DNA of 31,872 bases from a virus. Its lineage: Duplodnaviria; Heunggongvirae; Uroviricota; Caudoviricetes. Below are positions 3,623 through 31,188 of the stretch, one piece after another. The notes beneath the pieces are model-generated. The model did not search any database, had not been told where the DNA came from, and saw nothing but the letters and a program-made list of their open reading frames with translations. The stretch's first letter is position 1; every line of letters begins with the position of its first letter. The DNA lies in the IMG/VR virus record IMGVR_UViG_3300045988_180666; one strand, 5' to 3'. The translations under genes were made by a program, and so were the position numbers.

Positions 3623-6600
3623 TTAATATGCGTGGTTCAGCTTGCGCGCTGTGTATTTGGTCGTGTAGTCACTCACCTTGTTGCCCATGGTTGAGTTATA
3701 GACCAGCAGGAACGTCGCACTGTCGCCCTGTCCCATCTCTATGTAATCTTTGTTGCCGCAGTTCTCATCGAGAATCAAAGGTAACTCCTCTTTGTTCCAT
3801 GCGTAGGAATCGCTTTTGTCTTTGATCTTGTTGCGCCCATAAATGAAGAAGTTTGTCGTGCCTGGCTCAGCGACCACCGTAAATGTCACGGCGAAGTTGG
3901 TAGATGAGCCACAGCCTAATGCGCTGCGCACCTCAGACAGTGTTGGCAGCGTTATGCCGCTTGACGAGACGTAGCTGTAGATGAGCCAGACGTTATTCTC
4001 AGAAATCTTGGCATAGCCATTATAGATGGTGTTTTTTGTGCTAAGCGCATATCTGCTATACTTATATCCACCTATCCATCCATTGAGTACGCCATTGCCA
4101 GCACCTGTGAAAGCAAAATTATAGGCACCGTTTTTAGCCGAGAGTATGGCTGCGATATTGTAACCAAGCCCCCACCAGTCGCTGCTGTCCTCATTTTCGA
4201 ATCGAGCCACCGCACGCTGTCCTGATGACGCTGGTAGTACGTTGCCACCGATGCCCGCAAAGCATTTATGGGTATCGTTGCGAAATATGATGTATGCATC
4301 ATTGGTAAATGGGTCGTTTGTCAGACCCGTGCCCTGGATAGTGAATCCAGCGATCTTGCCCGCCAATGCCTCCATGGAGCCATCTTTGTTGATTTTGAAA
4401 TTGCTGTTGGCCGTGACCACACCGTTAAGGTTGATTTGGTCTGCCGTGATGGTGGCAGAGGAGATGCCGTTGGCAATCATTGTCTTGATGGTAGCCTCGG
4501 ATAGAATCTTGCCATCGACACCCTCGATTTTTGTAGTCAGCGCATTGTAGTCTGCCGTCACAAGCAAGCCACCTTTGTTTTTGAGCGTGCCATCGGCATT
4601 GAATCGCTCGCTCATCAGGGCGTTGTAGTCAGCGGTGGTGATAAGATAGCTCGTATCTTTGAGCTTGCCATTGGCATCGAAACGAGCAACTGCCGAAGAC
4701 CACGAATCGGCGTTTTGACTGACTAACGATATAGTCGGACCATAATCGTTGCGTATGTCTGAGCCTACGCTGTCGGCGTGTCTCCTGGCTTCGGCAACGG
4801 AACTGTTGAGGGCATTGTAGTTGTCAGACATAGTCCCTTGCAAAGTGTTTTTGGCTGCATTCAGCTCGTCTTTTGTCGCAGCCTTGCCCACCGTGGTATT
4901 GATGCCATTGACCGTTATCTTTAACTCAGCGAGTGCCGCCTTGGTGCCGTTGGCAGTATTGGTGACGCTCTCGACACGTGCAGTGATGCTGTCGATGTCG
5001 GTGTAGATGCCAGAAATTTTCTCGTTTGTGCTATCCTGCCAGGTGTTGATGAGGTCGATGCGACCTGCCTCTATCTCTATTCTTGACGAGAGTGTTGTGT
5101 TGAGTTCGCCGTATCTCTTATCGACATATAGGCGTATTGCCTCTTTCTCAGCGTCCAGCTCGATGCCGAGCTGAGTTGTGGTACCATTGACCTTGTCGAT
5201 GTTTTGTCCCAGCAGCTTGATGTTTTTGGCCGTCTGAAGTATTTGTGTCGAGACGGTCTTGCTCAGGTTGTCGAGCGGCTCGTCGGTGATGGTGAGCAGC
5301 GCGACGTAGATGTCTCCTGTATATCGGAGCACGAAGTCGCCGGTGCCATTCCACTTGCCATTTAGCTCTACCGTCTGCCACTCTGCCGAGTATGGCACGC
5401 TGACGCTCTGGGCTGACAGGTCGTTGGTCTTGCCTTCGACAGCCTTGCAACCCTCGAAGCCAAAGGTGAGGGTGCCAGCAGTCTTGGCGTAGATGCGAGC
5501 ACTTATATATAAGGTGTCTTGCACCTCGGTGTAGTCATCGCCAGTGGTGTTCATGCCATCCTCGCCTTTTTCTGCCGATGGCTGGGTATATTCCTTGTGG
5601 GTACCGGGTTTGCGGATGAGATCATTGGCTTGTTTGATGCCGCTGTCCTGTATGTGCAGCATGTTGCGACCCTCGTTGTTGTCGATGCTCACTCGGTGGT
5701 TGCCACTCACGGTGGCGGCACCATTGACCATGACAGGTAAGCCATTGGCATCGACCCAGAACTGGGACTCGTCTGTATCGTCGATGGTCCAGCCATCAAT
5801 GAGCTGCTCATCGTTATAGCCTATCGCCGTCAGAAACTGACCGTTATGGAGGTAGTTGTTCTCCTCTGTCGCCTCGTAGGAGGTCTGTGCGAAGCGGGTG
5901 GCGAACTGGTTCTGCAGCATCTGTATTTTGGTGTCGATGCTCTCACCTGTGCGGCGGAGCACGAAGTCGCCCGTGGCGTAGAGGTTCTGCAGGAACTCAC
6001 CGAAGCCTGATAGTGCACCGAAGAGTGGATGGGTGATGCCCCGTAAGTTGCCGAGGCGACCTTTGAGCGCATTGTCTGGGTCTGTCTTGAGACCATAGAT
6101 GATGTCCATGTAGGGCGTATCGCTGCCCACAGTCATCATCTGTATGATGCCCTTGCGGTCGGGGTCGGTGAGGTTGTCGACCCTAACAAAAGTGTCTCGC
6201 TTGGTGATGAGCTGCTCTGCGGTGGCACCCTCCATCGATGAGGTGAAGTTCTTGAACTTGACCCATGCTAGCATATCCTCGCCACTGCCCTCGCTGCCCA
6301 CCTCTGTCACGATAAGCTCGTATCGCTTGGTGACATAGTGATTGTTTTCGGTGGAGGGCATGCCATTGTACTGCTGCACCATCACGTAGTCATCCTTGCG
6401 GAATGGGTTGTACATCCTGCCCTCGTGGGTGTCGAGATAGACCCTGCCTGTCTCTGGATCGTAGTGGTCAACCTCTAGCATCGCCGTGAAGATGCGGTTG
6501 TCATTCTCGCCCAAGAGTTGGGAGATAATCATCTCGAAGATGCGCATGGTACCACGCACGATGAGATTATCGAGCTCTAGACCATACCTATTCTCTTGCA

Positions 6601-7102
6601 CCCCGGCAGCGTTGGTCGTGGGGTTGTTGGCGAGTCGCCAGCCCTTGCCATCGAGGAAGCCCGAGACGAAGTCGGGAGAGCCTATGGTATCGTCAAAACG
6701 AGCAGCGCCCTTGACGTGCAGCGCACTGACTGTCGCCAAGCCCCACGCCAGGATCTCTTCGATGCAAAGCTTGTAACCCCCATTCTCTTTTGTGGCGAGG
6801 CAGAAGCCTTTTTGACCAGCCTCGGAGTAGTCATCAGTGGCGATGGAGTGGGCGATGATGTCGCCCTCTTTGGAGAAAGAAAAGAGGTTGCCTATCTTGA
6901 TGCCCTTGAGAAAGGTGATGAGCCCATGGGCTGTATCGTCGTTGATGGCGGAGAGTTTATCGTTGTCAGCAGAGGAAGCATAGTCGAGCAGGGACAGGAA
7001 GGCGTTGCCAATGCGGCTTGCCGTATTGGCGTGCTTGACTCTCTCGTCACGGATGCCCTCGAAAGCCTCTCTGATTTTGTTGATGTCTTTATTTTCTGCC
7101 AT
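3623..7102 (-). CDS. large tail fibre / tail spike-like structural protein
   Basis: 1159 aa, the longest ORF in the window, with ATG at 7102 and a -7 promoter box just upstream. The central coiled-coil region carries an internal duplication (TTADYNALMSERF... / VTADYNALTTKIEG...). The C-terminal part is beta-rich. Confidence 0.7.
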   Translation of the reverse strand: MAENKDINKIREAFEGIRDERVKHANTASRIGNAFLSLLDYASSADNDKLSAINDDTAHGLITFLKGIKIGNLFSFSKEGDIIAHSIATDDYSEAGQKGFCLATKENGGYKLCIEEILAWGLATVSALHVKGAARFDDTIGSPDFVSGFLDGKGWRLANNPTTNAAGVQENRYGLELDNLIVRGTMRIFEMIISQLLGENDNRIFTAMLEVDHYDPETGRVYLDTHEGRMYNPFRKDDYVMVQQYNGMPSTENNHYVTKRYELIVTEVGSEGSGEDMLAWVKFKNFTSSMEGATAEQLITKRDTFVRVDNLTDPDRKGIIQMMTVGSDTPYMDIIYGLKTDPDNALKGRLGNLRGITHPLFGALSGFGEFLQNLYATGDFVLRRTGESIDTKIQMLQNQFATRFAQTSYEATEENNYLHNGQFLTAIGYNDEQLIDGWTIDDTDESQFWVDANGLPVMVNGAATVSGNHRVSIDNNEGRNMLHIQDSGIKQANDLIRKPGTHKEYTQPSAEKGEDGMNTTGDDYTEVQDTLYISARIYAKTAGTLTFGFEGCKAVEGKTNDLSAQSVSVPYSAEWQTVELNGKWNGTGDFVLRYTGDIYVALLTITDEPLDNLSKTVSTQILQTAKNIKLLGQNIDKVNGTTTQLGIELDAEKEAIRLYVDKRYGELNTTLSSRIEIEAGRIDLINTWQDSTNEKISGIYTDIDSITARVESVTNTANGTKAALAELKITVNGINTTVGKAATKDELNAAKNTLQGTMSDNYNALNSSVAEARRHADSVGSDIRNDYGPTISLVSQNADSWSSAVARFDANGKLKDTSYLITTADYNALMSERFNADGTLKNKGGLLVTADYNALTTKIEGVDGKILSEATIKTMIANGISSATITADQINLNGVVTANSNFKINKDGSMEALAGKIAGFTIQGTGLTNDPFTNDAYIIFRNDTHKCFAGIGGNVLPASSGQRAVARFENEDSSDWWGLGYNIAAILSAKNGAYNFAFTGAGNGVLNGWIGGYKYSRYALSTKNTIYNGYAKISENNVWLIYSYVSSSGITLPTLSEVRSALGCGSSTNFAVTFTVVAEPGTTNFFIYGRNKIKDKSDSYAWNKEELPLILDENCGNKDYIEMGQGDSATFLLVYNSTMGNKVSDYTTKYTARKLNHAY

Positions 7103-16039: not shown

Positions 16040-16564
16040 TTAGTTATACATTCTCTTTGTTCTCGCTAGGAACATCGCTCCCATCACTTGTGCGCCACAT
16101 TCGGCTAGCTCGTTGGCGAACTCTCGGGCGGTCGCTCCGCTCGTCACCACGTCGTCGAAGATGATGACTTTCTTTCCGCTGAAGTACTCTCTATCGAGTG
16201 CCACTCTGTAGTCGAAGCTCTCACACACTCTGTCTGTGCTGAAGTGCTTGGCTGTGCGCTCTCCATAGATGGAAATGTGCTCGTTTCCGTTCTGTACCTT
16301 TGCGCCTTGGCTCACCTTTTGGGCGAAGCGAGAAAAGCGCTTGGTGTACTTCTTTGAGTTGGCTGCTGGAGCGCAAACCATCACGAAGTCGCTGGCTTTG
16401 TCGCCATAGGTGTTGACGAAAGAGCTGACCACCATATCGGCAGCTGCGTCTGTCGCCCACTGCTTTCCATCCTTGAAGGCAAAGATGAAGTTTCTCACTT
16501 GCTCTGCTTGTGCTGAGCGGTCGAAACGCTTGGAGCTGTACTCGTAATAATTGAAAGTTTTCAT
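16040..16564 (-). CDS. ComF-like phosphoribosyltransferase (PRTase) domain protein
   Basis: 174 aa. Canonical PRPP-binding loop KKVIIFDDVVTSGATAREFANELAECGA. The upstream segment VCAPAANSKKYTKRFSRFAQKVS resembles the ComF-type R.F.Q region. No N-terminal Cys4 zinc finger is present. Only 15 nt separate it from radC. Confidence 0.8.
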   Translation of the reverse strand: MKTFNYYEYSSKRFDRSAQAEQVRNFIFAFKDGKQWATDAAADMVVSSFVNTYGDKASDFVMVCAPAANSKKYTKRFSRFAQKVSQGAKVQNGNEHISIYGERTAKHFSTDRVCESFDYRVALDREYFSGKKVIIFDDVVTSGATAREFANELAECGAQVMGAMFLARTKRMYN

Positions 16565-16745
16565 ACGCTTAAAATTTTTATTCTAGCCAGAGGGAGGAAG
16601 GAGCTTTTTTATTTGAACTCGTCTTTGCCTGCCCGTCTGAGAGTTTTTTTTATTCTGTCCGTCGGTCGTTTTTGTCGCTTTTTACGGTGCGATGCAGACG
16701 AGCGGAGAAGAGGTATGAAAGCCAAGGAATTTTGCAAAAAGTTTA

Positions 16746-17299
16746 TGGAAAACCGTCATCTCTGATTGCGGAAGGCTGCCGAAAAGTTTTTGGAAAATAG
16801 ATTTATCGGTACTTGGTGCATGCCGTCCGCCGTACCTTTGCACCCGAAAAAGAGATAATGACCGATGGATAACCGATAAAGGGAAAAGCTCTCGGACAGG
16901 AAAAGCGGGCAAAGAAAAGGCTCTGCCTTACCTTGGTGGTTAAGCCTTAGCGACGTTTGAGCGCCATCACGGTCACCACCGCTTGAAAATTCGCAAATTT
17001 TAACCCTAGCGTATGAAATGAAAGATGGAAAATTTGCGTCATCAAAAACACCATGTTTTTCAGACTTCAGGAGGAAAAACATACCTTGGAGCGATGAAAT
17101 CGCAGCATTTGGCATGCTTCGACCCCGAGGTTGAAGATGCCGAATGTGTCGTTTTGCGACAGGTTTTCCACACCCACGGATTGGAAAACCCCGATTTTAT
17201 CGTGGTTTTAGGGATTCAAAGGGAAAATAATTCCCCTTTGTCGGCGATAGCACCCCCCACCGCCCTACGCCCGAGCGCGCCTTCCGCCCCCTTGGAAAA
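16746..17299 (+). repeat. cluster of nine same-strand GGAAAA motifs (five as TGGAAAA) plus one inverted copy
   Basis: GGAAAA hexamers start at 16747, 16792, 16882, 16899, 17027, 17073, 17183, 17222 and 17294, with the inverted copy at 17164-17170. A further TGGAAAA lies at 15289-15295. Confidence 0.55.
16833..16840 (+). promoter_or_regulatory. plus-strand -7 box TACCTTTG inside the ORF-poor segment
   Basis: GTACCTTTGCAC (16832-16843) is identical to the 12-mer at 25902-25913. No good -33 box. Confidence 0.35.
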
Positions 17300-17359
17300 G
17301 ACGGAATATGTAAAAGACCGTTAACGTTTTTGTAGGAATGTAAAAAGCCAAAAGGCACG

Positions 17360-17392
17360 AAAAAAGGGAACACGCTTCGCAGCGCACTCCCC
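17360..17392 (-). terminator. intrinsic terminator after terL
   Basis: Minus-strand GGGAGUGCGC-UGCGAA-GCGUGUUCCC (10 bp including three G-U pairs, hence strand-specific) followed by U6. Confidence 0.7.
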
Positions 17393-17462
17393 TTATCGGC
17401 GGTCAAGCAAGAATGCCAGCCACCTAACTTATATAAGAATCGTACTATCTAAAGAAATCAAA

Positions 17463-19064
17463 CTATAGCATGGAACCCGTGGCGATGTAGCCATCAGCCT
17501 GAGGGTATTTCTCCATGCCAATCATGAGCGTGTCGTAGGCATCGGAGCCATCGGTGCGAGCCTCCAACTTATCCTCCTCGGTCTCAGCCAGCTTCTCGCC
17601 TCGCTTATCCTTCTTGCCGTTGTAGACCCCGGCCAGGCGGATGGAGATGAGCAGGTCTTCGTTGTTCTCGCTGTTGATCATCGAGCGATGCTCAGCCTTG
17701 CCGAGGAACATGCGGTTGAGCAGAAGCATCTTTTCGAGATGTCCCATCGGGTTGCCCAGATAGACCTCGTTGACATACCAGCCATGGTCGGTGAGGTAGT
17801 CGGTGATGAAGGTATGGAAGTCATCGTTCATCAGGGCGTAGTTGTTGCCCACGAAGGTGGAGTCGTAGTAGAAGTTGACCTCTTTGCACCGATGGTACTC
17901 ATAGTACTGCATGAACTTGTCGAGCAGGGCTGGCAGCTTCTCCTCATACTTCACGAAGATGCTCTTGAGGCAGCGTGCCTCGCCCCGCAGGTTGTCTTGT
18001 CCGACGGCTATCCAGTTGATGAGGGCGTTGGCATCGAAGGCGATGCAGAGCGGACGGTCGGGGTCAACGTCGGCATCCATTCTGGAATCTACATGCTTGA
18101 GCTTGTCGATGTCGTAGCCCAAGCCATCGAGGTAGGCGAGGTTGGGCGCCGTGTATAGGTTGGCATCCCTGAGGTTGGAGTAGAAGCCATCGAGCGAGAT
18201 GGAAGGTCGCTTGCACATGATGGAGGTCTGGAAGGTGAGGGCAGGGAGGTCTCGCTTCATCTGCTTGATGAACTCCATGCCGAGCACCTCGATGTTATAG
18301 ACCGATGAGTACTCTTTATAGAAGAGTGCCTTGGAGCGCAGTTGCGCCAGGAGCTGACCAATCTCTCGGAGTCGGCGCTGGGCATAGCCTGAGACATGGC
18401 CCGAGGTCTTGATGCGGTTGCGTATGTCATACTCCTCTACCACGAGCGAGGCGATGGCGTCGATGAGCAGCTGGTCGCAGTCTTTCTTGTAGTTGAGGAA
18501 CCAGGAGCCCTTCTTGGTCACGGGCATATCAGAGGTGATGAGCATGCCATGGTGGTAGTAGTGCTGGCCGAAGAGGTTGACGTTGCCTCGATTGGCAGGG
18601 AAGGTCTCGTCTTTGAGCTGTTCGAAGTTGATGAACTTCGCCTCGTCGATGTCGAGGTAGTCGAGCGAGAGGGAGTTGGAGGTACCCTTGCGGTCTTGCG
18701 AGATGATGGTACCGATGGAGCCGTTATAGAAAGAGATGGTGTTCTCCCAGTTGCTGGGCGGTATGACCGGGTCGGGCCATCCCAGTTTTTTGGGAGGCTT
18801 GACCCCGATGAGATAATGCTTGCCCCGGTGGAAGCCCCATCGCTCCCAGTGCTGAAGCATCGACGGTATGGTGTTGGTGAGGCATCGCTTGGTGTTGGCG
18901 GATACGAAGCCGCCGTTGCTGCCAGGCATGCGCTGCATGTTGCGCAGGTTGAAGGTGGCGTGGAGAATGCTCTTGCCGATGCCTCGACCGCCCACGACCA
19001 CGTTGTCGCGGGCGGAGATGAGGTTGACCTCCATCTGGGCTGGGTTGAGATATTGATCTATCAT
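17463..19064 (-). CDS. terL: terminase large subunit
   Basis: 533 aa. Walker A is VVGGRGIGKS and Walker B-like is LSLDYLDIDEA, followed by a C-terminal nuclease-sized domain. The start overlaps the upstream gene in an ATGA arrangement. Confidence 0.85.
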   Translation of the reverse strand: MIDQYLNPAQMEVNLISARDNVVVGGRGIGKSILHATFNLRNMQRMPGSNGGFVSANTKRCLTNTIPSMLQHWERWGFHRGKHYLIGVKPPKKLGWPDPVIPPSNWENTISFYNGSIGTIISQDRKGTSNSLSLDYLDIDEAKFINFEQLKDETFPANRGNVNLFGQHYYHHGMLITSDMPVTKKGSWFLNYKKDCDQLLIDAIASLVVEEYDIRNRIKTSGHVSGYAQRRLREIGQLLAQLRSKALFYKEYSSVYNIEVLGMEFIKQMKRDLPALTFQTSIMCKRPSISLDGFYSNLRDANLYTAPNLAYLDGLGYDIDKLKHVDSRMDADVDPDRPLCIAFDANALINWIAVGQDNLRGEARCLKSIFVKYEEKLPALLDKFMQYYEYHRCKEVNFYYDSTFVGNNYALMNDDFHTFITDYLTDHGWYVNEVYLGNPMGHLEKMLLLNRMFLGKAEHRSMINSENNEDLLISIRLAGVYNGKKDKRGEKLAETEEDKLEARTDGSDAYDTLMIGMEKYPQADGYIATGSML

Positions 19065-19690
19065 AGTGCTTTGTCCTCCTTGACTTCTTCTGTAGGTGTA
19101 TATTCCAAGAGCTGTTCGTCGTAGTCCTCGGCCTCGATCTTGACGAGATCCATGGAGTTGTCGGTGTATTTCTTGACGAGCTTCTTGATGGTCTGCATCA
19201 CGTTAGGGATGCGCTTGAGACCCAAGTGTCGTGGGTCGGTGGTAGGGATGAAGACCTGAGGCTGAATCTGGTCGTAGCCGTTGTCGGTAGGATCCTCTTT
19301 GTCGAGCAGGTGATATTTGCCGTATGCAGCTGCGGCGGCAGCCATGGCTCGGGCATCGCCCATGGAGTCGGCCTTGTCGTAGGTGCGCTGTATCATCTGG
19401 TCGAAGCGATAGCGGGCGAAGTCTTTTGACACTTTTTGCAGGTTGCCCAATATGAGCTTGATGAGGTGCAGGTCGTTGTAAGCCATCATGCGCTGCACCT
19501 TGTAGTCGTGCATATCTTTATAGACCAGCTCTTGGTCGCTCTTGCGAGGGTTGATGAGCCACCAGGCATAGAGGGCACGGATGCGCAAAATGCGGTCGCG
19601 CACTGGGGCGGGCACATTTTGCGCATCCATCTCTTCGGGTGTGCGGTCCATCAGTTCGATGATGGCATCGATGTTGGCGGGTTCTCTCAT
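19061..19690 (-). CDS. possible terminase small subunit / packaging protein
   Basis: 209 aa, helical, translationally coupled (4-nt overlap) to terL on one side and to the HTH ORF on the other. The call rests on position only. Confidence 0.4.
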   Translation of the reverse strand: MREPANIDAIIELMDRTPEEMDAQNVPAPVRDRILRIRALYAWWLINPRKSDQELVYKDMHDYKVQRMMAYNDLHLIKLILGNLQKVSKDFARYRFDQMIQRTYDKADSMGDARAMAAAAAAYGKYHLLDKEDPTDNGYDQIQPQVFIPTTDPRHLGLKRIPNVMQTIKKLVKKYTDNSMDLVKIEAEDYDEQLLEYTPTEEVKEDKAL

Positions 19691-19968
19691 ATTCTAATCT
19701 CCTCTAACATTTGGTTCAGATATTCGTGTGTGCGCTGCACCGCCTGTGGCGAGCCAGCCGCAGCCAGGTCTAGCTTGTTTTTGCGTATCTGCTGGCGCAC
19801 CGTCGCCATGCCCAAGTAATAGACACGGTGAAGCTCGGAGTCGGGCTTCAGTATCTCGTCACGCAGATCGTCCTCGCTAATATCCAAAAGGACGGACATC
19901 TCGGATATCGGAGTCAACGTCTCCGCGAAGTCTTGCACTTTTTTGAGTAATTCCTGAGAAATTTCCAT
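19687..19968 (-). CDS. small HTH-like DNA-binding protein (TerS N-terminal-domain-like)
   Basis: 93 aa. The segment ISEMSVLLDISEDDLRDEILKPDSELHRVYYLGMATVRQQ resembles the HTH/recognition layout of small-terminase N-termini. ATG at 19968 lies 92 nt inside the upstream ORF. Confidence 0.4.
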   Translation of the reverse strand: MEISQELLKKVQDFAETLTPISEMSVLLDISEDDLRDEILKPDSELHRVYYLGMATVRQQIRKNKLDLAAAGSPQAVQRTHEYLNQMLEEIRI

Positions 19969-20452
19969 TGATTCTTAAGCTTTGAGTGTCACAATGAAGG
20001 GTATATCCGCCGAAGAGGTCGGCGAAGACCTGCGGGTCGGTGGTGATGATGGTTGACTCGTCACGGCTGCCGTAGGTCTGGTTTTGCGAGGTGACGACCG
20101 ACACGACGTGCTGGTCGTTGCGGAAGAGTGTCACCTTGGAGTGGTTTTGCCCCAGGAACACATCGTTGAAGCAGGTCTGCATCATGCGCCACAGCTGCAC
20201 GGTCTTTTTGCTCGCCTTGACATCGAGCAGCATCGTTGCCGACAGGATGCTGCCCGACTGGCGCATCAGGCGGAAGCCTCGCAGGAACTCCTCGGAGGTG
20301 GAGTAGGAAGACACCCACACATCTGCAGGGCCTATCTGGGAGAGAATCCACTTGATGAGACCGAGGGTGTGGAGGTGCCGCCCGAAGTAGGCTTGCGTCT
20401 GGGCATCGGCGATAGGACGGAGCAGGTCACTGACCTTGACCTTGGTCGGCAT
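19877..20452 (-). CDS. PLD/HKD-superfamily (Nuc-like) protein
   Basis: 191 aa. The single HKD-type motif GQNHSKVTLFRNDQHVVSVVTSQNQT fits the Nuc-like pattern (H.K...D......GS.N.T). The preceding VWVSSYSTSEEFLRGFRLMRQSG...LLDVK matches the first half of the fold. Confidence 0.55.
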   Translation of the reverse strand: MPTKVKVSDLLRPIADAQTQAYFGRHLHTLGLIKWILSQIGPADVWVSSYSTSEEFLRGFRLMRQSGSILSATMLLDVKASKKTVQLWRMMQTCFNDVFLGQNHSKVTLFRNDQHVVSVVTSQNQTYGSRDESTIITTDPQVFADLFGGYTLHCDTQSLRINGNFSGITQKSARLRGDVDSDIRDVRPFGY

Positions 20453-21170
20453 TGGCGGCTAGCTTAGCCTTGGCTACACGGTCACGGTCGGCATTGGTAA
20501 CCTGGTATGAGTCGTAGGTGAGCATGTCGGCACGATAGCGCTTGTCGAGGTCGGAGAGTATCTTGAGAAGCTCGTATCGGTCGCATGGCTCAAGGCGCTC
20601 CATCGTCTTGAGCGTCTCGAAGGTCGATTTAATCTGCTTGTATCGCTTGGCGTTGGCATCCCAGAGAGCGGCAACCTCGGCAGGAAGGAACTCATGGTCG
20701 CTGCGCTTGCCCTTGCGGATGACCGCCACGCCATCGCTCTCGGAGGAAGGCAGCTCGGCATCATCGGTCGAGCCATCATCGTCGATGGAATCGGCATTTT
20801 TTGCGATTTCATTGCCATTTTCGTCGGTTTCATCGGTCTTTTTGGTCGTTTTCTCGGTCGTATCGGTCGTTTCTTCGGTCGTTGCCACAGGTACGCCCTC
20901 ACTGATGATGGCTTGCGCCTCTGGTATGACGATGGCATCCATCTGCTTGACCTCTTCGATGGTCATGCCATCGAGACGAATCTTCAGGAACTTATTCAGC
21001 TCATACTCGATGTTGGTGCGATAAACCTGTGGCTGTCGGGTGGCACGGAAATGGTAGAAGCGATTGCGGTTGAGACGGAAGAGCATGTCTGCGCCCTTGA
21101 TGATGTCAGCGTCGCTCTCGTGCTTGGCATTGAGCCACGCCTGTATCTGTTTGGTGAATTGATGATCCAT
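20427..21170 (-). CDS. hypothetical phage protein with acidic T/D/E-rich linker
   Basis: The track ORF starts at 21302 and overlaps the upstream gene and a terminator. The ATG at 21170 (MDHQFTKQIQAWLNAK...) gives 247 aa, starting just downstream of the terminator at 21190-21230. Confidence 0.55.
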   Translation of the reverse strand: MDHQFTKQIQAWLNAKHESDADIIKGADMLFRLNRNRFYHFRATRQPQVYRTNIEYELNKFLKIRLDGMTIEEVKQMDAIVIPEAQAIISEGVPVATTEETTDTTEKTTKKTDETDENGNEIAKNADSIDDDGSTDDAELPSSESDGVAVIRKGKRSDHEFLPAEVAALWDANAKRYKQIKSTFETLKTMERLEPCDRYELLKILSDLDKRYRADMLTYDSYQVTNADRDRVAKAKLAANADQGQGQ

Positions 21171-21189
21171 ATATAAGAATGTTTTTGAT

Positions 21190-21230
21190 GAAAAGAACAA
21201 AGGTGGCTCAGGCACGAAGCGAGAGCCACC
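21190..21230 (-). terminator. intrinsic terminator after the capsid/198-aa gene pair
   Basis: Minus-strand GGUGGCUC-13 nt loop-GAGCCACC followed by UUUGUUCUUUUC. Confidence 0.65.
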
Positions 21231-21286
21231 TAAGCTTTGAAGTTTAAACCGTATGTAGTTATGCAAAAATTTGGGCAAATGAACGT

Positions 21287-21883
21287 TTATGCCGCCTCCC
21301 ATACAGAGCCATCGGAACCCTTGATGTCTCCGGACTCAGTCTCGATCTTGCCAGGATAGAACGGTGTAGGGCAGAAGTCTGTCGCCTCGGTGTTGACGGT
21401 CGTGGTGCAAGCATCGGTCACGCCGCTGCCTGATGCCTGGCTGACGGTAATCTTAGGTGCGAATGCCTCGCAGCCGATGAGACGGGCACGACCCTTGCGG
21501 TCTTGCACCATCATGATGAGCTCGTCGTTGATAGCCATGGTAGCGAAGCCACTGATGTCCTCGTCGGTACCACCCACCACGAACTCGCCTTTGTTGAGGA
21601 ACGTAGCGGAAGGTGCCTCGCCCTGAGTCTCTGCAGTAAAATTGCTCTTGGCATCTACGAGGTCGAGACTGTGCCACTTGGCATCGCTCGCCAAGGTGAA
21701 GTCGCCTGTATATTGAGCCAGCTTAGCTGGGTCTGTGGTCTCGTCAGTTGCCGCTGGCAATGTTGGCCAAGTCAGAATCTGACTCTTCAAGATGAAGAAA
21801 ACACGAGGGCGAACGCCTGGGGCTATGCGAGCCCCAGGACATTTCTTAACTGATTTATATAAATCTTTTGTATTACAAGCCAT
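21287..21883 (-). CDS. phage structural protein (head decoration or similar abundant virion protein)
   Basis: 198 aa, immediately after the putative capsid gene and followed by a strong terminator, the layout expected of a highly expressed head gene pair. No motif recognised. Confidence 0.5.
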   Translation of the reverse strand: MACNTKDLYKSVKKCPGARIAPGVRPRVFFILKSQILTWPTLPAATDETTDPAKLAQYTGDFTLASDAKWHSLDLVDAKSNFTAETQGEAPSATFLNKGEFVVGGTDEDISGFATMAINDELIMMVQDRKGRARLIGCEAFAPKITVSQASGSGVTDACTTTVNTEATDFCPTPFYPGKIETESGDIKGSDGSVWEAA

Positions 21884-21916
21884 AATTTTATCTCCTATAT
21901 ATAATAAGGTGAAACT

Positions 21917-23026
21917 TTACTCCTTGCCCTCAGCTCCGGTATCGTCTGCAGAAGAATTCTTCTGCTCTGCATCGCTAGCTGTGTTGCTGCTTGCAGGATC
22001 AGCACCTGAACCCTTTGTGATGAGCGATGTGGTACCATCGTTTGTGATGAACAGGGCTCGTTCTTTATTGATGCTCTCGTACTGGCAACCTAAGAACTTG
22101 GTGGCGATGAAGTCGAGCTTCCAAGGGTGGTACTTTTCTACGCTGATCTTCTCCTCGTCGCTGTTGTTTGCCTCGTTGACACCCACGAGCATATTGTTGC
22201 GAGTGGTGAGCTGGAAGAACGGAGCGTTCTTCTTGTTGATGAGTGGTACCATCTCAACGTTGTCGAAACCCTCGACGGTGTTGTGGTTGTAACCGGTATT
22301 GTATGGCACATTGCCAAACTTATTGAGGTAGTTGCGGTTGTAGAGATTGATGAACGCCTGTGGAACGTAGAGATAAAGCTTCTCTTCGCCAATCAGTTCT
22401 TCGTCAGCCTCCTCGCAAATGGCCTGTGCGAAGTCAACGGCGTTATCGCTGCTGATATTCTTACCACTGCCCAAAATATCTGAAACTTTGATGAGGTTGC
22501 CGAGGTCTCGAGACAGCTTGCCATTAGTCAACTCAGTCTTGGCGATGGTATCGAAACCATTGAAGAGGTCTTTTGAGCCTTTGCCCTCGTCGTTGCGCAC
22601 GGCATCGAAGAGGTGGAGGTTGAGGTTCTTGCCCAGCTTGAGCGCCAAGAGCTGCAGCACCTGAAGGGTGATTGGCACGTTCTTAAGCGCTTCGCCATTC
22701 ATGGCGTTGGCCCCCCAAATGGTGGAATAAACTGAGTTCGGGGAGAACTTGATGTCAACGTTGCCGAGGAACACCTGCAAAGTGCGAGGTGTAATCTTTA
22801 CGCCACCATCGCCCACGCGGTTCTCGTCGTATGGACCAAACTCTGCGTTGCCGAGCAACTCGCCCACGGTCTCTGAAACTCTGATGCCCGGGCGCAGGGT
22901 CATGTACTTGAGTGACTGAGCCAAGCCTTTGGTAGGCATCGTAATCAACTTCGAACGGTAAGTTTTCGCAGTGTTCTGCAGCTGTACATCGACATCTACA
23001 GGCACAATGAATTTATTATCTGCCAT
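21917..23026 (-). CDS. putative major capsid protein
   Basis: The ATG at 23026 (MADNKFIVPVDVDV...) lies 1 nt after the protease/scaffold stop and gives 369 aa. Position and size are typical of a capsid protein. It has a long polar C-terminal tail. Confidence 0.65.
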   Translation of the reverse strand: MADNKFIVPVDVDVQLQNTAKTYRSKLITMPTKGLAQSLKYMTLRPGIRVSETVGELLGNAEFGPYDENRVGDGGVKITPRTLQVFLGNVDIKFSPNSVYSTIWGANAMNGEALKNVPITLQVLQLLALKLGKNLNLHLFDAVRNDEGKGSKDLFNGFDTIAKTELTNGKLSRDLGNLIKVSDILGSGKNISSDNAVDFAQAICEEADEELIGEEKLYLYVPQAFINLYNRNYLNKFGNVPYNTGYNHNTVEGFDNVEMVPLINKKNAPFFQLTTRNNMLVGVNEANNSDEEKISVEKYHPWKLDFIATKFLGCQYESINKERALFITNDGTTSLITKGSGADPASSNTASDAEQKNSSADDTGAEGKE

Positions 23027-23027
23027 A

Positions 23028-24053
23028 TTATGCAAACTGATTTAAAACATCCAACACTTGATCTGAGCAGAAATCCTCGACCTTGGTGTCATCGACAGCA
23101 GTGTGCGTGTCGCCACCAGGCTCTCCCTCCAGATCCTTCACTTTATCCTTCAGGTCATCTCTCTCCTTTTCGAGATTCTTGACCTTAGTCTCTAACTCCT
23201 TCTTCTCGTCCTTGACCTTCTGAAGCTCTGTGTCTTTGTCGGTCACGGCCTTGGAGTCGGCAGCGATCTTATCCTCCAGTTTCTGCATCTGCTCCTGTGA
23301 GATTGTGCAGTTCTTTGCGGAATCTTCTGCCTCAATGCCCTCGATATTGAGGACATTGTTGATGTGAGTCCATTTTTTGATCATATTAATAATTTTATTT
23401 TGTGATTTATCTTTGCCGAATAATCGGTCGATGATGCTTGGCTTTTTATCATACCAGGAGTTAACAACCTCTGGGAGAACAGGAAGGTTGTTGTACTTGA
23501 TGAAGTCTTGCGTCTGCTCGGTGATGTCGGCAGGCTTGCCATCCATGGCTTCATCGACGAGACCCAGTTCGATGCACTCATCGACGGTGTGCCACATCGC
23601 TTCGGACATCACCTTGACGATGTCCTCGTGCTTCTTGCCCGAGCGATCGCAGTAAACGTTGGCGATGATGTTGTCGATTTTCTGCTGGTTCTCTTGCTGT
23701 TTTTGAAGTTGCTCGATGAGCGAGCCTATCTGCTCCTCGTTGAGCGCAGACCACACAAACTGCTCGGTAGAGCACTTGTGTACCAGGAGCAAGCTATATT
23801 TGCTCATGCGAATCTTGCTGGCACCCATCGCACAGATGGTGGCAGCAGAGGCAGAGAAGCCCGCCTGGAAGTCAACGGTCACGTCGCCATGGGACTTGAA
23901 CATCTGACAGATGGCGAGACCTGCGGAGACCTCGCCACCCAAGGAGTCGATGGCAACATCGACGTGCTTATCTTTGTTGGCCTTAAGAACATCGCGAACC
24001 ATGAGCTTGGTCCACGAGCCAATATATCCTGTGATAGAAATTTGGTACTTCAT
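23028..24053 (-). CDS. ClpP-like prohead serine protease fused to coiled-coil scaffold domain
   Basis: 341 aa. The N-terminal half has ClpP/S14-like motifs (DSLGGEVSAGLAI; Ser region QAGFSASAATICAMGA; His region LLLVHKCS). The C-terminal part is a K/E/D coiled coil (KVKDEKKELETKVKNLEKERDDLKDKVKDLEGE). Confidence 0.8.
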   Translation of the reverse strand: MKYQISITGYIGSWTKLMVRDVLKANKDKHVDVAIDSLGGEVSAGLAICQMFKSHGDVTVDFQAGFSASAATICAMGASKIRMSKYSLLLVHKCSTEQFVWSALNEEQIGSLIEQLQKQQENQQKIDNIIANVYCDRSGKKHEDIVKVMSEAMWHTVDECIELGLVDEAMDGKPADITEQTQDFIKYNNLPVLPEVVNSWYDKKPSIIDRLFGKDKSQNKIINMIKKWTHINNVLNIEGIEAEDSAKNCTISQEQMQKLEDKIAADSKAVTDKDTELQKVKDEKKELETKVKNLEKERDDLKDKVKDLEGEPGGDTHTAVDDTKVEDFCSDQVLDVLNQFA

Positions 24054-29902: not shown

Positions 29903-30280
29903 ATGTTTAATGGTCAGATAATCAGAAAGTTAATGTCGGATGCTGGCTTAACTAAAAAAGAGTTTGAAAGACGTATGTTCGGTAGTAAATCGACCGACCT
30001 CAACCATTTGGAAAAAGCGAAGAATCTTCGCAGTGACACTCTCGAACGTCTGCGTGATGTGTTGAAGTGCTCTATGGATGACTTCTTTACAGCACCCTCA
30101 TGGGCTGAGAACGGAAAGGGGACAGTCGTAGGCTCTAACAATGTGCTGTCAACAGTAGCCATCGGCAACGAAGTGATGGAAGCCCAATATCTCAAGGAGT
30201 TGCTCTTGGAGAAGGACAAACGCATCAGCACTTTGGAAAATTATATCAAGCTTCTGGAGACTAACTTAAATAAGGACTAA
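29903..30280 (+). CDS. XRE-family HTH regulator, putative prophage repressor
   Basis: 125 aa, the only phage gene on the plus strand and divergent from the early operon. The N-terminal HTH is IIRKLMSDAGLTKKEFERRMFGSKSTDLNHLEKAKNLRSDTLERLRDVLKCSMDDFF. The C-terminal part is a coiled coil (QYLKELLLEKDKRISTLENYIKLLE). Confidence 0.75.
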   Translation: MFNGQIIRKLMSDAGLTKKEFERRMFGSKSTDLNHLEKAKNLRSDTLERLRDVLKCSMDDFFTAPSWAENGKGTVVGSNNVLSTVAIGNEVMEAQYLKELLLEKDKRISTLENYIKLLETNLNKD

Positions 30281-30542: not shown

Positions 30543-30565
30543 CACATTGATAATTTATTGTGCAA
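30540..30565. promoter_or_regulatory. 7-bp perfect inverted repeat TTGCACA-N12-TGTGCAA overlapping the TetR -7 box / start site (likely autoregulatory operator)
   Basis: Read directly: arms at 30540-30546 and 30559-30565. Confidence 0.5.
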
Positions 30566-30591
30566 CCAAATCTCGATGGAGGTACTTCGTT

Positions 30592-31188
30592 ATGTCAATA
30601 TCAAAAACTAGACAGAAATTAGTGGATGTCGCTCGACAACTCTTTGCAAAGAACGGAATCGCCAATACAACGATGAATGACATCGCTGTGGCTTCTGGTA
30701 AGGGACGTCGCACGCTTTATACCTATTTTAGTCGTAAGGAGGACGTCTATTACGCAGTGATAGAGTCGGAATTGGAGCGCCTTTCTGACAAACTTGACGA
30801 AGTGGCCGCCAGTAAGATTCGACCTCAAGACAAAATCATCGAATTGATTTATACCCACTTGAGCATGATCAAGGAGACTGTTGTCAGAAATGGAAATCTG
30901 AGAGCTGAGTTCTTCCGCAATATTTGGATGGTGGAAAAGGCTCGCAAGAATTTCGATGAAGACGAGATAGAACTTCTCAGGAAGGTTTATTCCGAGGGCA
31001 AGGCGGACGGCGAGTTTGACATCGATAATGTAGATTTGGTGGCTGACATCACACACTATTGCATCAAAGGTCTCGAAGTTCCGTTTATCTATGGGCGATT
31101 GGGACATGGCTTGAACGTGGAGTCGAGCAAACCGCTGGTTGCCAAGGTTGTCTATGGTGCTTTAGGAAAGTCGGGAATGAAGTTGTAA
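30592..31188 (+). CDS. TetR/AcrR-family transcriptional regulator (host)
   Basis: The track start at 30547 is TTG; the ATG at 30592 gives MSISKTRQKLVDVARQLFAKNGIANTTMNDIAVASGKGRRTLYTYF, the canonical TetR N-terminal HTH. A consensus promoter and a palindrome lie just upstream. Confidence 0.85.
   Translation: MSISKTRQKLVDVARQLFAKNGIANTTMNDIAVASGKGRRTLYTYFSRKEDVYYAVIESELERLSDKLDEVAASKIRPQDKIIELIYTHLSMIKETVVRNGNLRAEFFRNIWMVEKARKNFDEDEIELLRKVYSEGKADGEFDIDNVDLVADITHYCIKGLEVPFIYGRLGHGLNVESSKPLVAKVVYGALGKSGMKL

Follow-up and report, generated by a model that had tools for sequence, protein, structure and literature searches.

What occupies the 0.9 kb between the gene for the terminase large subunit (terL) and that for a phosphoribosyltransferase (PRTase) is the question raised by the stretch of DNA considered here, IMG/VR record IMGVR_UViG_3300045988_180666 (31,872 nt in full, hereafter the window), which comes from a phage of Bacteroidota type whose genes lie on the minus strand. 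An initial annotation, made from the letters alone, had taken some 0.8 kb of this gap as one unit, a candidate large non-coding RNA or protein-binding array marked by clustered GGAAAA motifs and stacked hairpins. Comparison with related loci suggests a different partition, in which the gap appears to be a composite of two conserved non-coding modules and not a single array. The first, inherited with terL, holds two near-invariant boxes, here called Z and X, together with a set of hairpins, and appears to be an uncatalogued, widespread, structured non-coding family, set apart from the families in Rfam. Among the readings weighed below, the one ranked first, with a confidence that stops short of even, is that this element is an RNA read from the gene (minus) strand, ahead of its being a DNA site for packaging (cos). 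The second module appears to be the control region of a ShosT-like PRTase-RadC cassette. The parts of the first module, in the order in which the gene strand would be read, are these:

About 17400-16990, minus strand: module 1, the terL terminator followed by the structured element, co-inherited with terL
17360..17393, minus strand: terL intrinsic terminator, GGGGAGUGCGC-UGCGAA-GCGUGUUCCC and then U6
17302..17310, minus strand: box Z, CATATTCCG, near-invariant (invariant in three alignments), also the 5' arm of helix P2
17282..17306, minus strand: helix P2, UUCCGUCUUUU / AGGGGGCGGAA, G.U-rich, present in the minimum-energy and centroid fold predictions
17254..17270, minus strand: box X, GCGTAGGGCGGTGGGGG, near-invariant and G-rich
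About 17244-17253, minus strand: helix P3, a short hairpin directly after the G-run of X, weak in the window
17217-17240, minus strand: helix P4, CAAAGGGGAA-UUAU-UUUCCCUUUG, the second hairpin after X
17185-17209, minus strand: predicted helix P5, AAAACC.CGAU-AAA-AUCG.GGUUUU, terminator-like (A-tract, hairpin, U-tract)
17162-17190, minus strand: alternative 9-bp hairpin, which has AAAACC in common with P5
17164-17171, minus strand: conserved GUGGAAAA motif, which holds the inverted GGAAAA copy
17147-17161, minus strand: predicted helix P6, UGUCG/CGACA (UUGGUG/CACCAA in the L057 clade)
16986..17146, minus strand: clade-specific 3' extension, with hairpins at 17092-17104, 17053-17082 and 16992-17038

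Boxes X and Z occur together in 241 loci with 187 distinct cores, from Bacteroidales phages and prophages, and the Z-N-X pattern was recovered from at least 120 IMG/VR contigs. Among these IMG/VR matches (at least 120), the element lies downstream of terL and on the same strand in 98 of the 99 loci with a visible terL, 100-3500 nt past the terL stop codon; in a few loci it is inverted. Box X is kept in phages whose terL is just 51-60% identical, and in the group at 52% Z takes the form CATAT[TA]CCG, followed about 41 nt later by X as GCGTAGGGC[GA][GC]TGGGGG. A terL-alignment scan of a genome collection gave 52 loci, most with Z and X just downstream of terL, and these loci, from genomes or metagenome-assembled genomes (MAGs), are labelled almost entirely as Bacteroidales (Segatella copri (MAG), Bacteroides, Prevotellaceae, Muribaculaceae, Alloprevotella). 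The element is missing from phages with terL 27-34% identical (MT835542, Flavobacterium FPSV-F7 and Polaribacter Leef_1). From this distribution the element appears to be co-inherited with one terL family of Bacteroidales phages, those of Segatella, Prevotella, Bacteroides and Muribaculaceae. Its other neighbours change: PRTase homologues stand beside it in 113 of the 241 loci, downstream of it in 66, the window included, and between it and terL in 47, with RadC as the partner of the PRTase in the window and the L057 group, so that the region appears to be an insertion hotspot for a defence-like PRTase cassette. With cassettes on either side, rare inversions, and the neighbourhood of terL never left, the role of the element would be tied to the packaging or late module and independent of its immediate neighbours; it would be a self-contained signal of that module, not the untranslated region of a given neighbour gene. 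A degenerate upstream copy of Z is visible at about 17332-17346.

Searches of known families returned nothing for this element. Rfam 15 gave no match in the window at gathering score, the models for GOLLD, ROOL, HEARO, JUMPstart, pRNA and riboswitches included, none in 16400-17600 even at E up to 10, and none at gathering score in 11 diverse related loci; tRNA and tmRNA scans of the window were likewise empty. No description of the motif was found in the literature, where the IMG/VR structured-RNA catalogue (PMC10690425) comes without a searchable supplement.

Downstream of the boxes, the predicted hairpins differ in sequence between lineages yet stay paired. Equivalents of P2 in other clades are CCGC...GCGG hairpins; P3 reads GUCGG/CCGAC, CUGC/GCAG or CAGAAC/GUUCUG according to lineage; P4 becomes CCGCAU/AUGCGG or GUGGGGCGC/GCGCCCCAC in other lineages; and a small AAUU-centred hairpin, seen by eye, is GGUAAUUACC in some clades and GGCAAUUGCC in others. 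The terL terminator stem has G.U pairs on the minus strand and compensatory changes in an alignment of 21 sequences. The P5 pairs are kept in 20-21 of 21 close relatives, with AAAACC common to P5 and the alternative 9-bp hairpin, and a [CT]GGAAAA motif is found again some 150-165 nt past X, also in distant clades. By eye, no consistent covariation was seen for pairing between the upstream Z-like box and X or between Z and X.

RNAalifold on plain MAFFT alignments of distant clades gave almost nothing, the variable helices being misaligned, and was replaced by an alignment curated by hand and N-padded. In these 34 curated sequences 95.2% of cells are paired and 153 are double-change cells, where shuffled versions give 51.1% and 41. 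A covariance model (R1), seeded with nine in-register sequences, matched 75 of 85 sources, exactly once in each locus and on the strand of the element wherever that was determined; its match in the window is 17229-17314 on the minus strand (35.4 bits, E 2e-5). When the 75 loci, 66 of them non-seed, were aligned with Infernal, all 11 modelled P3/P4 pairs had compensatory changes, with 86.9% of cells paired against 59.4% shuffled and 184 double-change cells against 60, counts that are inflated in both alignments by their fitting to the structure, by hand or by Infernal. The covariation score was 0.415, against 0.110 for shuffled and at most 0.106 for slid controls. Independent of the fitted alignments is a comparison of two models on held-out sequences: a sequence-only model from the same seed aligned distant members only up to X, and for most held-out members compared the structured model gained 5-21 bits over it (61.2 vs 39.9 bits for L120, 53.6 vs 38.5 for L131). 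The predicted helices P3 and P4 can thus be said to covary, and it is on the minus-strand element that the covariation analysis found its compensated pairs; compensatory changes across diverged homologues, the general mark of a structured RNA, are what P3 and P4 display, in alignments fitted to the structure.

The gap as a whole gives no sign of coding. It contains open reading frames (ORFs) of 99 residues on the plus strand and of 119, 76 and 69 residues on the minus strand, none with a Pfam or PHROG match. A search of IMG/VR with terL provided 72 related loci. The gap ORFs p99, m119, m69, m76, p50 and p42 are all broken in relatives, with stop codons and frameshifts that vary among them and amino-acid identity below nucleotide identity. 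The gap can be aligned in 56 of 56 loci with terL at least 92% identical, and its identity between the three main clades is about 80%, whereas the identity at four-fold degenerate sites between clades is 58-68% for terL and 54-62% for the PRTase gene; being more conserved than the flanking silent sites, it would be under purifying selection as DNA or RNA. Sequence comparison thus marks the gap as non-coding and constrained. The 99- and 119-residue ORFs present in the window might suggest a decayed protein gene, but the chance of this is next to negligible given the excess of nucleotide over amino-acid identity, the clade-specific stops and frameshifts, the want of any family match and conservation above that of silent sites. 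The pseudogene remnant that the initial annotation had named as its own alternative can be set aside on the same grounds, ORFs broken differently among relatives and a gap that changes more slowly than silent sites. Its description of an ORF-poor, non-protein-like segment between the terL terminator and the PRTase gene holds good, there being no domain matches and no ORF that is kept intact among relatives.

The division into two modules follows from loci that have no PRTase-RadC. There, homology to the window ends at about 16984 (about 17150 in the most divergent group), so that 16986-17400 would travel with terL and 16565-16985 with the PRTase. The 3' extension at 16986..17146 is inherited with terL in each of the 56 loci that have terL identities of 92% or more, PRTase-less ones included, and could not be aligned to the groups with terL 51-60% identical. 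What had been proposed as one 0.8-kb unit therefore resolves into two modules with separate evolutionary histories.

Some loci carry additional sequence on either side of the element. L003, a close relative, has about 80 nt inserted at about 6707-6787, after the terL terminator and before the element, with repeated GGTACGGAGC-type units; other clades have a 23-nt insertion there, and the place is a small variable site just before the element. In the distant clade, the spacer after the element in L057 (8795-8867 and 8905-8985) contains a perfect 34-bp inverted repeat and two copies of TTTTTGACATCATTTAAAAATGATGATT, each palindromic, which appear operator-like and lie upstream of the next promoter.

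How might the terL-linked element work? If it is an RNA, it would be made by polymerase that runs past a leaky terminator of terL, with a 3' end at the A-tract, hairpin and U-tract of P5 or beyond; the invariant single-stranded boxes Z and X would be functional contact sites and the variable helices scaffolding. The mechanism we prefer is an RNA signal at an operon junction, which would exert put/nut-like control of read-through into downstream structural genes or bind a packaging protein. Action as an RNA, the strand used, the mode of transcription and the function are all points that we infer. The RNA is ranked above a cos site because several hairpins at fixed positions keep pairing despite sequence turnover, which is hard to reconcile with recognition of duplex DNA. 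The strand preference is in keeping with it: the predicted fold for the window has -69.4 kcal/mol (z -2.43) on the minus strand vs -55.8 (z -1.19) on the plus strand, and across representatives the strand with X is favoured by 4.7 kcal/mol on average (20 of 31). A number of observations weigh against it. G.U and A.C combinations in paired columns number 24 and 16, so that the strand asymmetry typical of RNA is weak. No TAnnTTTG promoter is found at a fixed position upstream of Z. A terminator stands just before the element in most clades examined (a hairpin and T-run 45-60 nt before Z in most clades displayed), and its transcription is putative. A TAnnTTTG box lies 250-430 nt after X and 40-70 nt before the next gene in most loci; placed between a terminator and the next promoter, the element, if an RNA, would have to be made by read-through or from a promoter type that was not recognised, and with a promoter between it and the next gene in most loci it would not be an ordinary 5' leader. 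P3 is weak in the window, where R1 scores 35.4 bits and the sequence-only model 36.7. To these are added the structure-fitted alignments and three contigs that end at box X, as would fit a DNA end.

Those contig ends belong to the chief rival, a possibility of lesser but real weight, that module 1 is the cos (or pac) DNA site of this terminase family, cleaved at X to leave G-rich cohesive ends; it is held with the same reserve that Z and its neighbours would be terminase-binding sites, and the hairpins terminators, insulators or structures of melted DNA only. Strict co-inheritance with one terL family and absence at terL identities of about 27-34% would suit such a site, as would its position next to the terminase gene (98 of 99 loci, at 100-3500 nt past the end of terL), in a spacer bounded by a terminator and the promoter that follows, with no promoter of its own found. 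The element also behaves as an autonomous unit with cassettes piled up on both sides, as at genome ends, the G.U and A.C counts are nearly symmetric, and the second gene upstream of terL is endonuclease-like (PHROG E 3e-5). Three independent contigs break at the edges of GGCGGTGGGGG, as trimming of a 3' overhang would produce: L066 ends in ...GAGCGTAG, L356 starts with GGGTGC and L359 starts 2 nt after the G-run. They are low-coverage metagenome or virome contigs from different clades, with breaks that correspond to window 17250-17264 and leave out GGCGGTGGGGG. G-runs beside inverted repeats are a known cause of Illumina dropout, and the breaks at box X may reflect either a physical DNA end or sequencing dropout. 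The three ends are also about 5 nt apart, in contigs of about 3x coverage, none of the 16 IMG/VR contigs with a window-type element ends there, no IMG/VR contig that starts immediately past X turned up in a scan, and a less strict pattern for contig ends at X drowned in chance matches. Different hairpins at fixed positions that keep their pairing through complete sequence turnover, and that differ from one another within one phage, are not what duplex recognition sites would lead one to expect. Known cos sites, moreover, usually lie upstream of the small-subunit gene terS and not downstream of terL, which counts against a cos site here. A paper on Porphyromonas phages gave no cos information. 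By analogy with the pRNA of phage phi29 the element could instead be a trans-acting structured RNA that works with terminase or portal in packaging; its constant association with this terL family would then be accounted for, but we consider this reading improbable.

The minus-strand RNA that we favour differs from the transcript proposed by the initial annotation, a single plus-strand RNA of about 350 nt, launched from a promoter at 16833-40, carrying GGAAAA/TGGAAAA as a binding or sponge array and ending at the 9-bp hairpin and U-tract. The sequence features behind that proposal, motif counts included, were confirmed. The plus-strand copies of GGAAAA begin at 16747, 16792, 16882, 16899, 17027, 17073, 17183, 17222 and 17294, five of the nine being TGGAAAA, with a single minus-strand copy at 17164-17169; against shuffles of the region that preserve dinucleotides, the comparison with controls that had been suggested, GGAAAA numbers 9 vs 1.1 expected and TGGAAAA 5 vs 0.26, and none of 5000 shuffles matched either count. 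Conservation is where the array fails. Sister clades have 3-5 plus-strand copies and more distant relatives 0-2, most of the window's plus-strand copies (for example 16747 and 16792) are missing at the equivalent positions of sister clades, and among the ten copies the inverted one alone belongs to the family-wide element, so the cluster appears to be mostly a local quirk of this phage lineage and was rejected as a conserved array for binding. Three points speak for a plus-strand RNA: the enrichment in the window, the conservation of the promoter, orientation included, with the PRTase cassette, and the purine-rich, GGAAAA-like strings that come after the corresponding promoter of L057 as well. 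Such an RNA would, however, cross two modules that assort independently, the plus-strand fold is no better than shuffled (z -1.19), its terminator hairpin of 9 bp is lost in the L011/L026 group, and loci free of the cassette carry a promoter at equal distance in the reversed direction. With the losses in sister clades, these make a single plus-strand RNA of this kind unlikely.

Other parts of that proposal survive in altered form. The hairpins it had listed are all present (17092-17104, 17105-17119, 17147-17161, 17162-17190 and 17217-17240), and as a structured element they stand in so far as P4 lies at 17217-17240, P5 takes up part of 17162-17209 and P6 corresponds to 17147-17161; the 9-bp hairpin, not kept in the L011/L026 group, was rejected as a conserved terminator. 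A structured phage non-coding RNA finds backing in the conserved structured element and the constraint on the gap, but on the other strand: the family-wide element lies on the strand of terL and its minus-strand fold is the better one. With no Rfam match up to E 10, identity with GOLLD or ROOL, which had been raised as a parallel, is not borne out. A pac- or origin-type binding array persists as the cos-site rival, minus its GGAAAA array, which is not conserved, and the suggestion of an RNA component for the PRTase-RadC pair falls with the presence of the element in many phages that have no PRTase-RadC. The plus-strand -7 box is real as a motif, at 16833-40, and conserved in its outward direction, but belongs to a unit separate from the terL-linked element, and the idea of a plus-strand transcript is in this way partly vindicated for the PRTase cassette. 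That cassette and the module upstream of it comprise:

16565..16985, no strand assigned: module 2, the PRTase-RadC upstream region, present with the PRTase and absent where the PRTase is absent
16833..16840, plus strand: Bacteroidetes-type -7 box TACCTTTG, a match to TAnnTTTG, pointing away from the PRTase
16622-16632/16905-16915, 16650-16661/16893-16904 and 16559-16577/16995-17018, no strand assigned: inverted-repeat arms of module 2, from a repeat listing
16040-16564, minus strand: PRTase (ShosT/PsyrT/ComF-like), first gene of the accessory cassette, Pfam PF00156
15341-16024, minus strand: RadC, full-length partner of the PRTase, NCBIfam RadC 1e-51

The -7 motif TAnnTTTG is frequent in the window, with 37 occurrences vs 12 expected. 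The box in module 2 points outward in 54 of 54 distinct element-to-PRTase spacers, 275-313 nt from the ATG assigned by script, and it does so too in L057, which has the cassette on the upstream side of the element (box 6824-6831, minus strand; ATG 7104). On this comparison the orientation of the predicted promoter is fixed relative to the PRTase. It would transcribe a purine-rich RNA away from the cassette, which would account for the GGAAAA copies at 16882 and 16899. The PRTase itself matches PADLOC ShosT (1.6e-9) and PsyrT (9e-9) and NCBIfam ComF, and with RadC it appears to form a defence-like or toxin-antitoxin-like accessory cassette. A ToxI-like type III toxin-antitoxin array for the PRTase was tried and rejected, there being no tandem repeats and a promoter that points away from the PRTase; the sole notable direct repeat is a 16-nt pair 45 nt apart (16737/16782), and the GGAAAA spacing is irregular.

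Inverted-repeat arms analogous to those of the window are found in L057/L063 (27-30 nt) and in L151/L178. With repeats around the promoter segment in three divergent clades, and a promoter that would face the PRTase after a flip, module 2 could be an invertible promoter (inverton) that switches PRTase-RadC, the window being in the OFF state. We regard this as hardly likely: the repeats do flank the promoter, but a single orientation was seen in nature, with no flipped copy and no minus-strand match among the 54 distinct spacers, 0 metagenome contigs for the ON-state pattern against 15 for the OFF state, only unrelated chance matches in IMG/VR to one predicted flipped junction, and no recombinase among the window proteins scanned.

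Two further observations concern this promoter region. An unrelated faecal phage, L073 (MT836929.1), has at 5001-5129 a stretch of 126 nt with 75% identity to window 16723-16848, which includes the outward TACCTTTG and lies between two opposite-strand genes, before an unrelated gene; the shared stretch may be a mobile promoter cassette. In the L151/L178 clade, a 47-codon ORF at about 1033-1180 of L178 (plus strand of the locus) is opened by CACCGATATGAA, an inverted copy of the region where the PRTase starts; the ORF lies downstream of the outward promoter and is directed away from the PRTase. The window equivalent reads ATG AAA TGA.

On the other side of the gap lies the terminase gene:

17463-19064, minus strand: terL, with a PHROG terminase large subunit match and 34% identity to an annotated terL

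Beyond it, at 19061-24053, the gene order is unusual, with a head protease (23028-24053) and a likely capsid gene followed by ORFs of 191, 93 and 209 residues and then terL. The 191-residue ORF is endonuclease-like and the 209-residue ORF is a candidate, queried, for terS; the usual order would be terS-terL-portal-protease. Pfam and PHROGs identified no portal among the window proteins. Farther on, a Cro/C1-type helix-turn-helix protein (29903-30280, plus strand) is followed by a TetR-family regulator (30547-31188, plus strand). Many related IMG/VR contigs begin about 10.8-11.5 kb upstream of terL, equivalent to about 30.3-30.5 kb in the window, where a prophage or host boundary probably lies.

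Whichever reading holds, the Z-X signature offers a compact marker of this phage lineage and of the PRTase-RadC insertion hotspot. If the element is an RNA, it would be a new and abundant structured class in phages of the Bacteroidales dominant in human gut and rumen, and a 17-nt box kept near-invariant while the linked terL falls to about 51% identity would give a point of entry to the control of late genes or of packaging in phages that are difficult to grow in culture. If, instead, the element is a cos site, it would define the packaging signal and genome ends of a large uncultured phage group and aid genome completion, host-range vectors and transduction studies.

Set beside known systems, each module has partial likenesses. 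Module 2 shares with the invertons of Bacteroidales its inverted repeats around a 140-420-bp segment, with a TAnnTTTG promoter upstream of accessory genes, and differs from them in its single orientation in all loci and in that no invertase was identified. Box X contains GGCGGTGG, a 7/8 match to the ops/JUMPStart consensus, GGCGGTAG; an ops/JUMPStart leader was rejected, there being no Rfam JUMPstart match, no upstream promoter and no NusG-like protein among the window proteins scanned. As a counterpart of phi29 pRNA the element would be a structured RNA of about 100-200 nt tied to packaging, an analogy to which the missing Rfam match, long-genome phages with an ordinary terL and the want of evident multimerisation loops are foreign. 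With the cos sites of lambda, P2 and HK97-type phages it has in common a short, G/C-rich conserved sequence by the terminase genes, co-inheritance with them and accessory genes alongside, and its GGGCGG resembles the start of the lambda cohesive end; unlike those sites, it lies downstream of terL and not upstream of terS and is surrounded by covarying hairpins. Antitermination RNAs (HK022 put, lambda nut boxA/boxB, EAR) differ from the element in sequence and in having a promoter just upstream; they resemble it in a conserved linear box followed by a small hairpin, a position at an operon junction, terminator-like hairpins thereafter and the strand of late transcription. Finally, against candidate RNAs of the Weinberg/Breaker type from phages and metagenomes (IMG/VR catalogue, PMC10690425), the element stands out by its unusually strict linkage to one terL family and its lack of an Rfam 15 match, but it is like them in being intergenic, phage-borne, widespread in gut metagenomes and putative in function, and in combining near-invariant single-stranded boxes with covarying helices.

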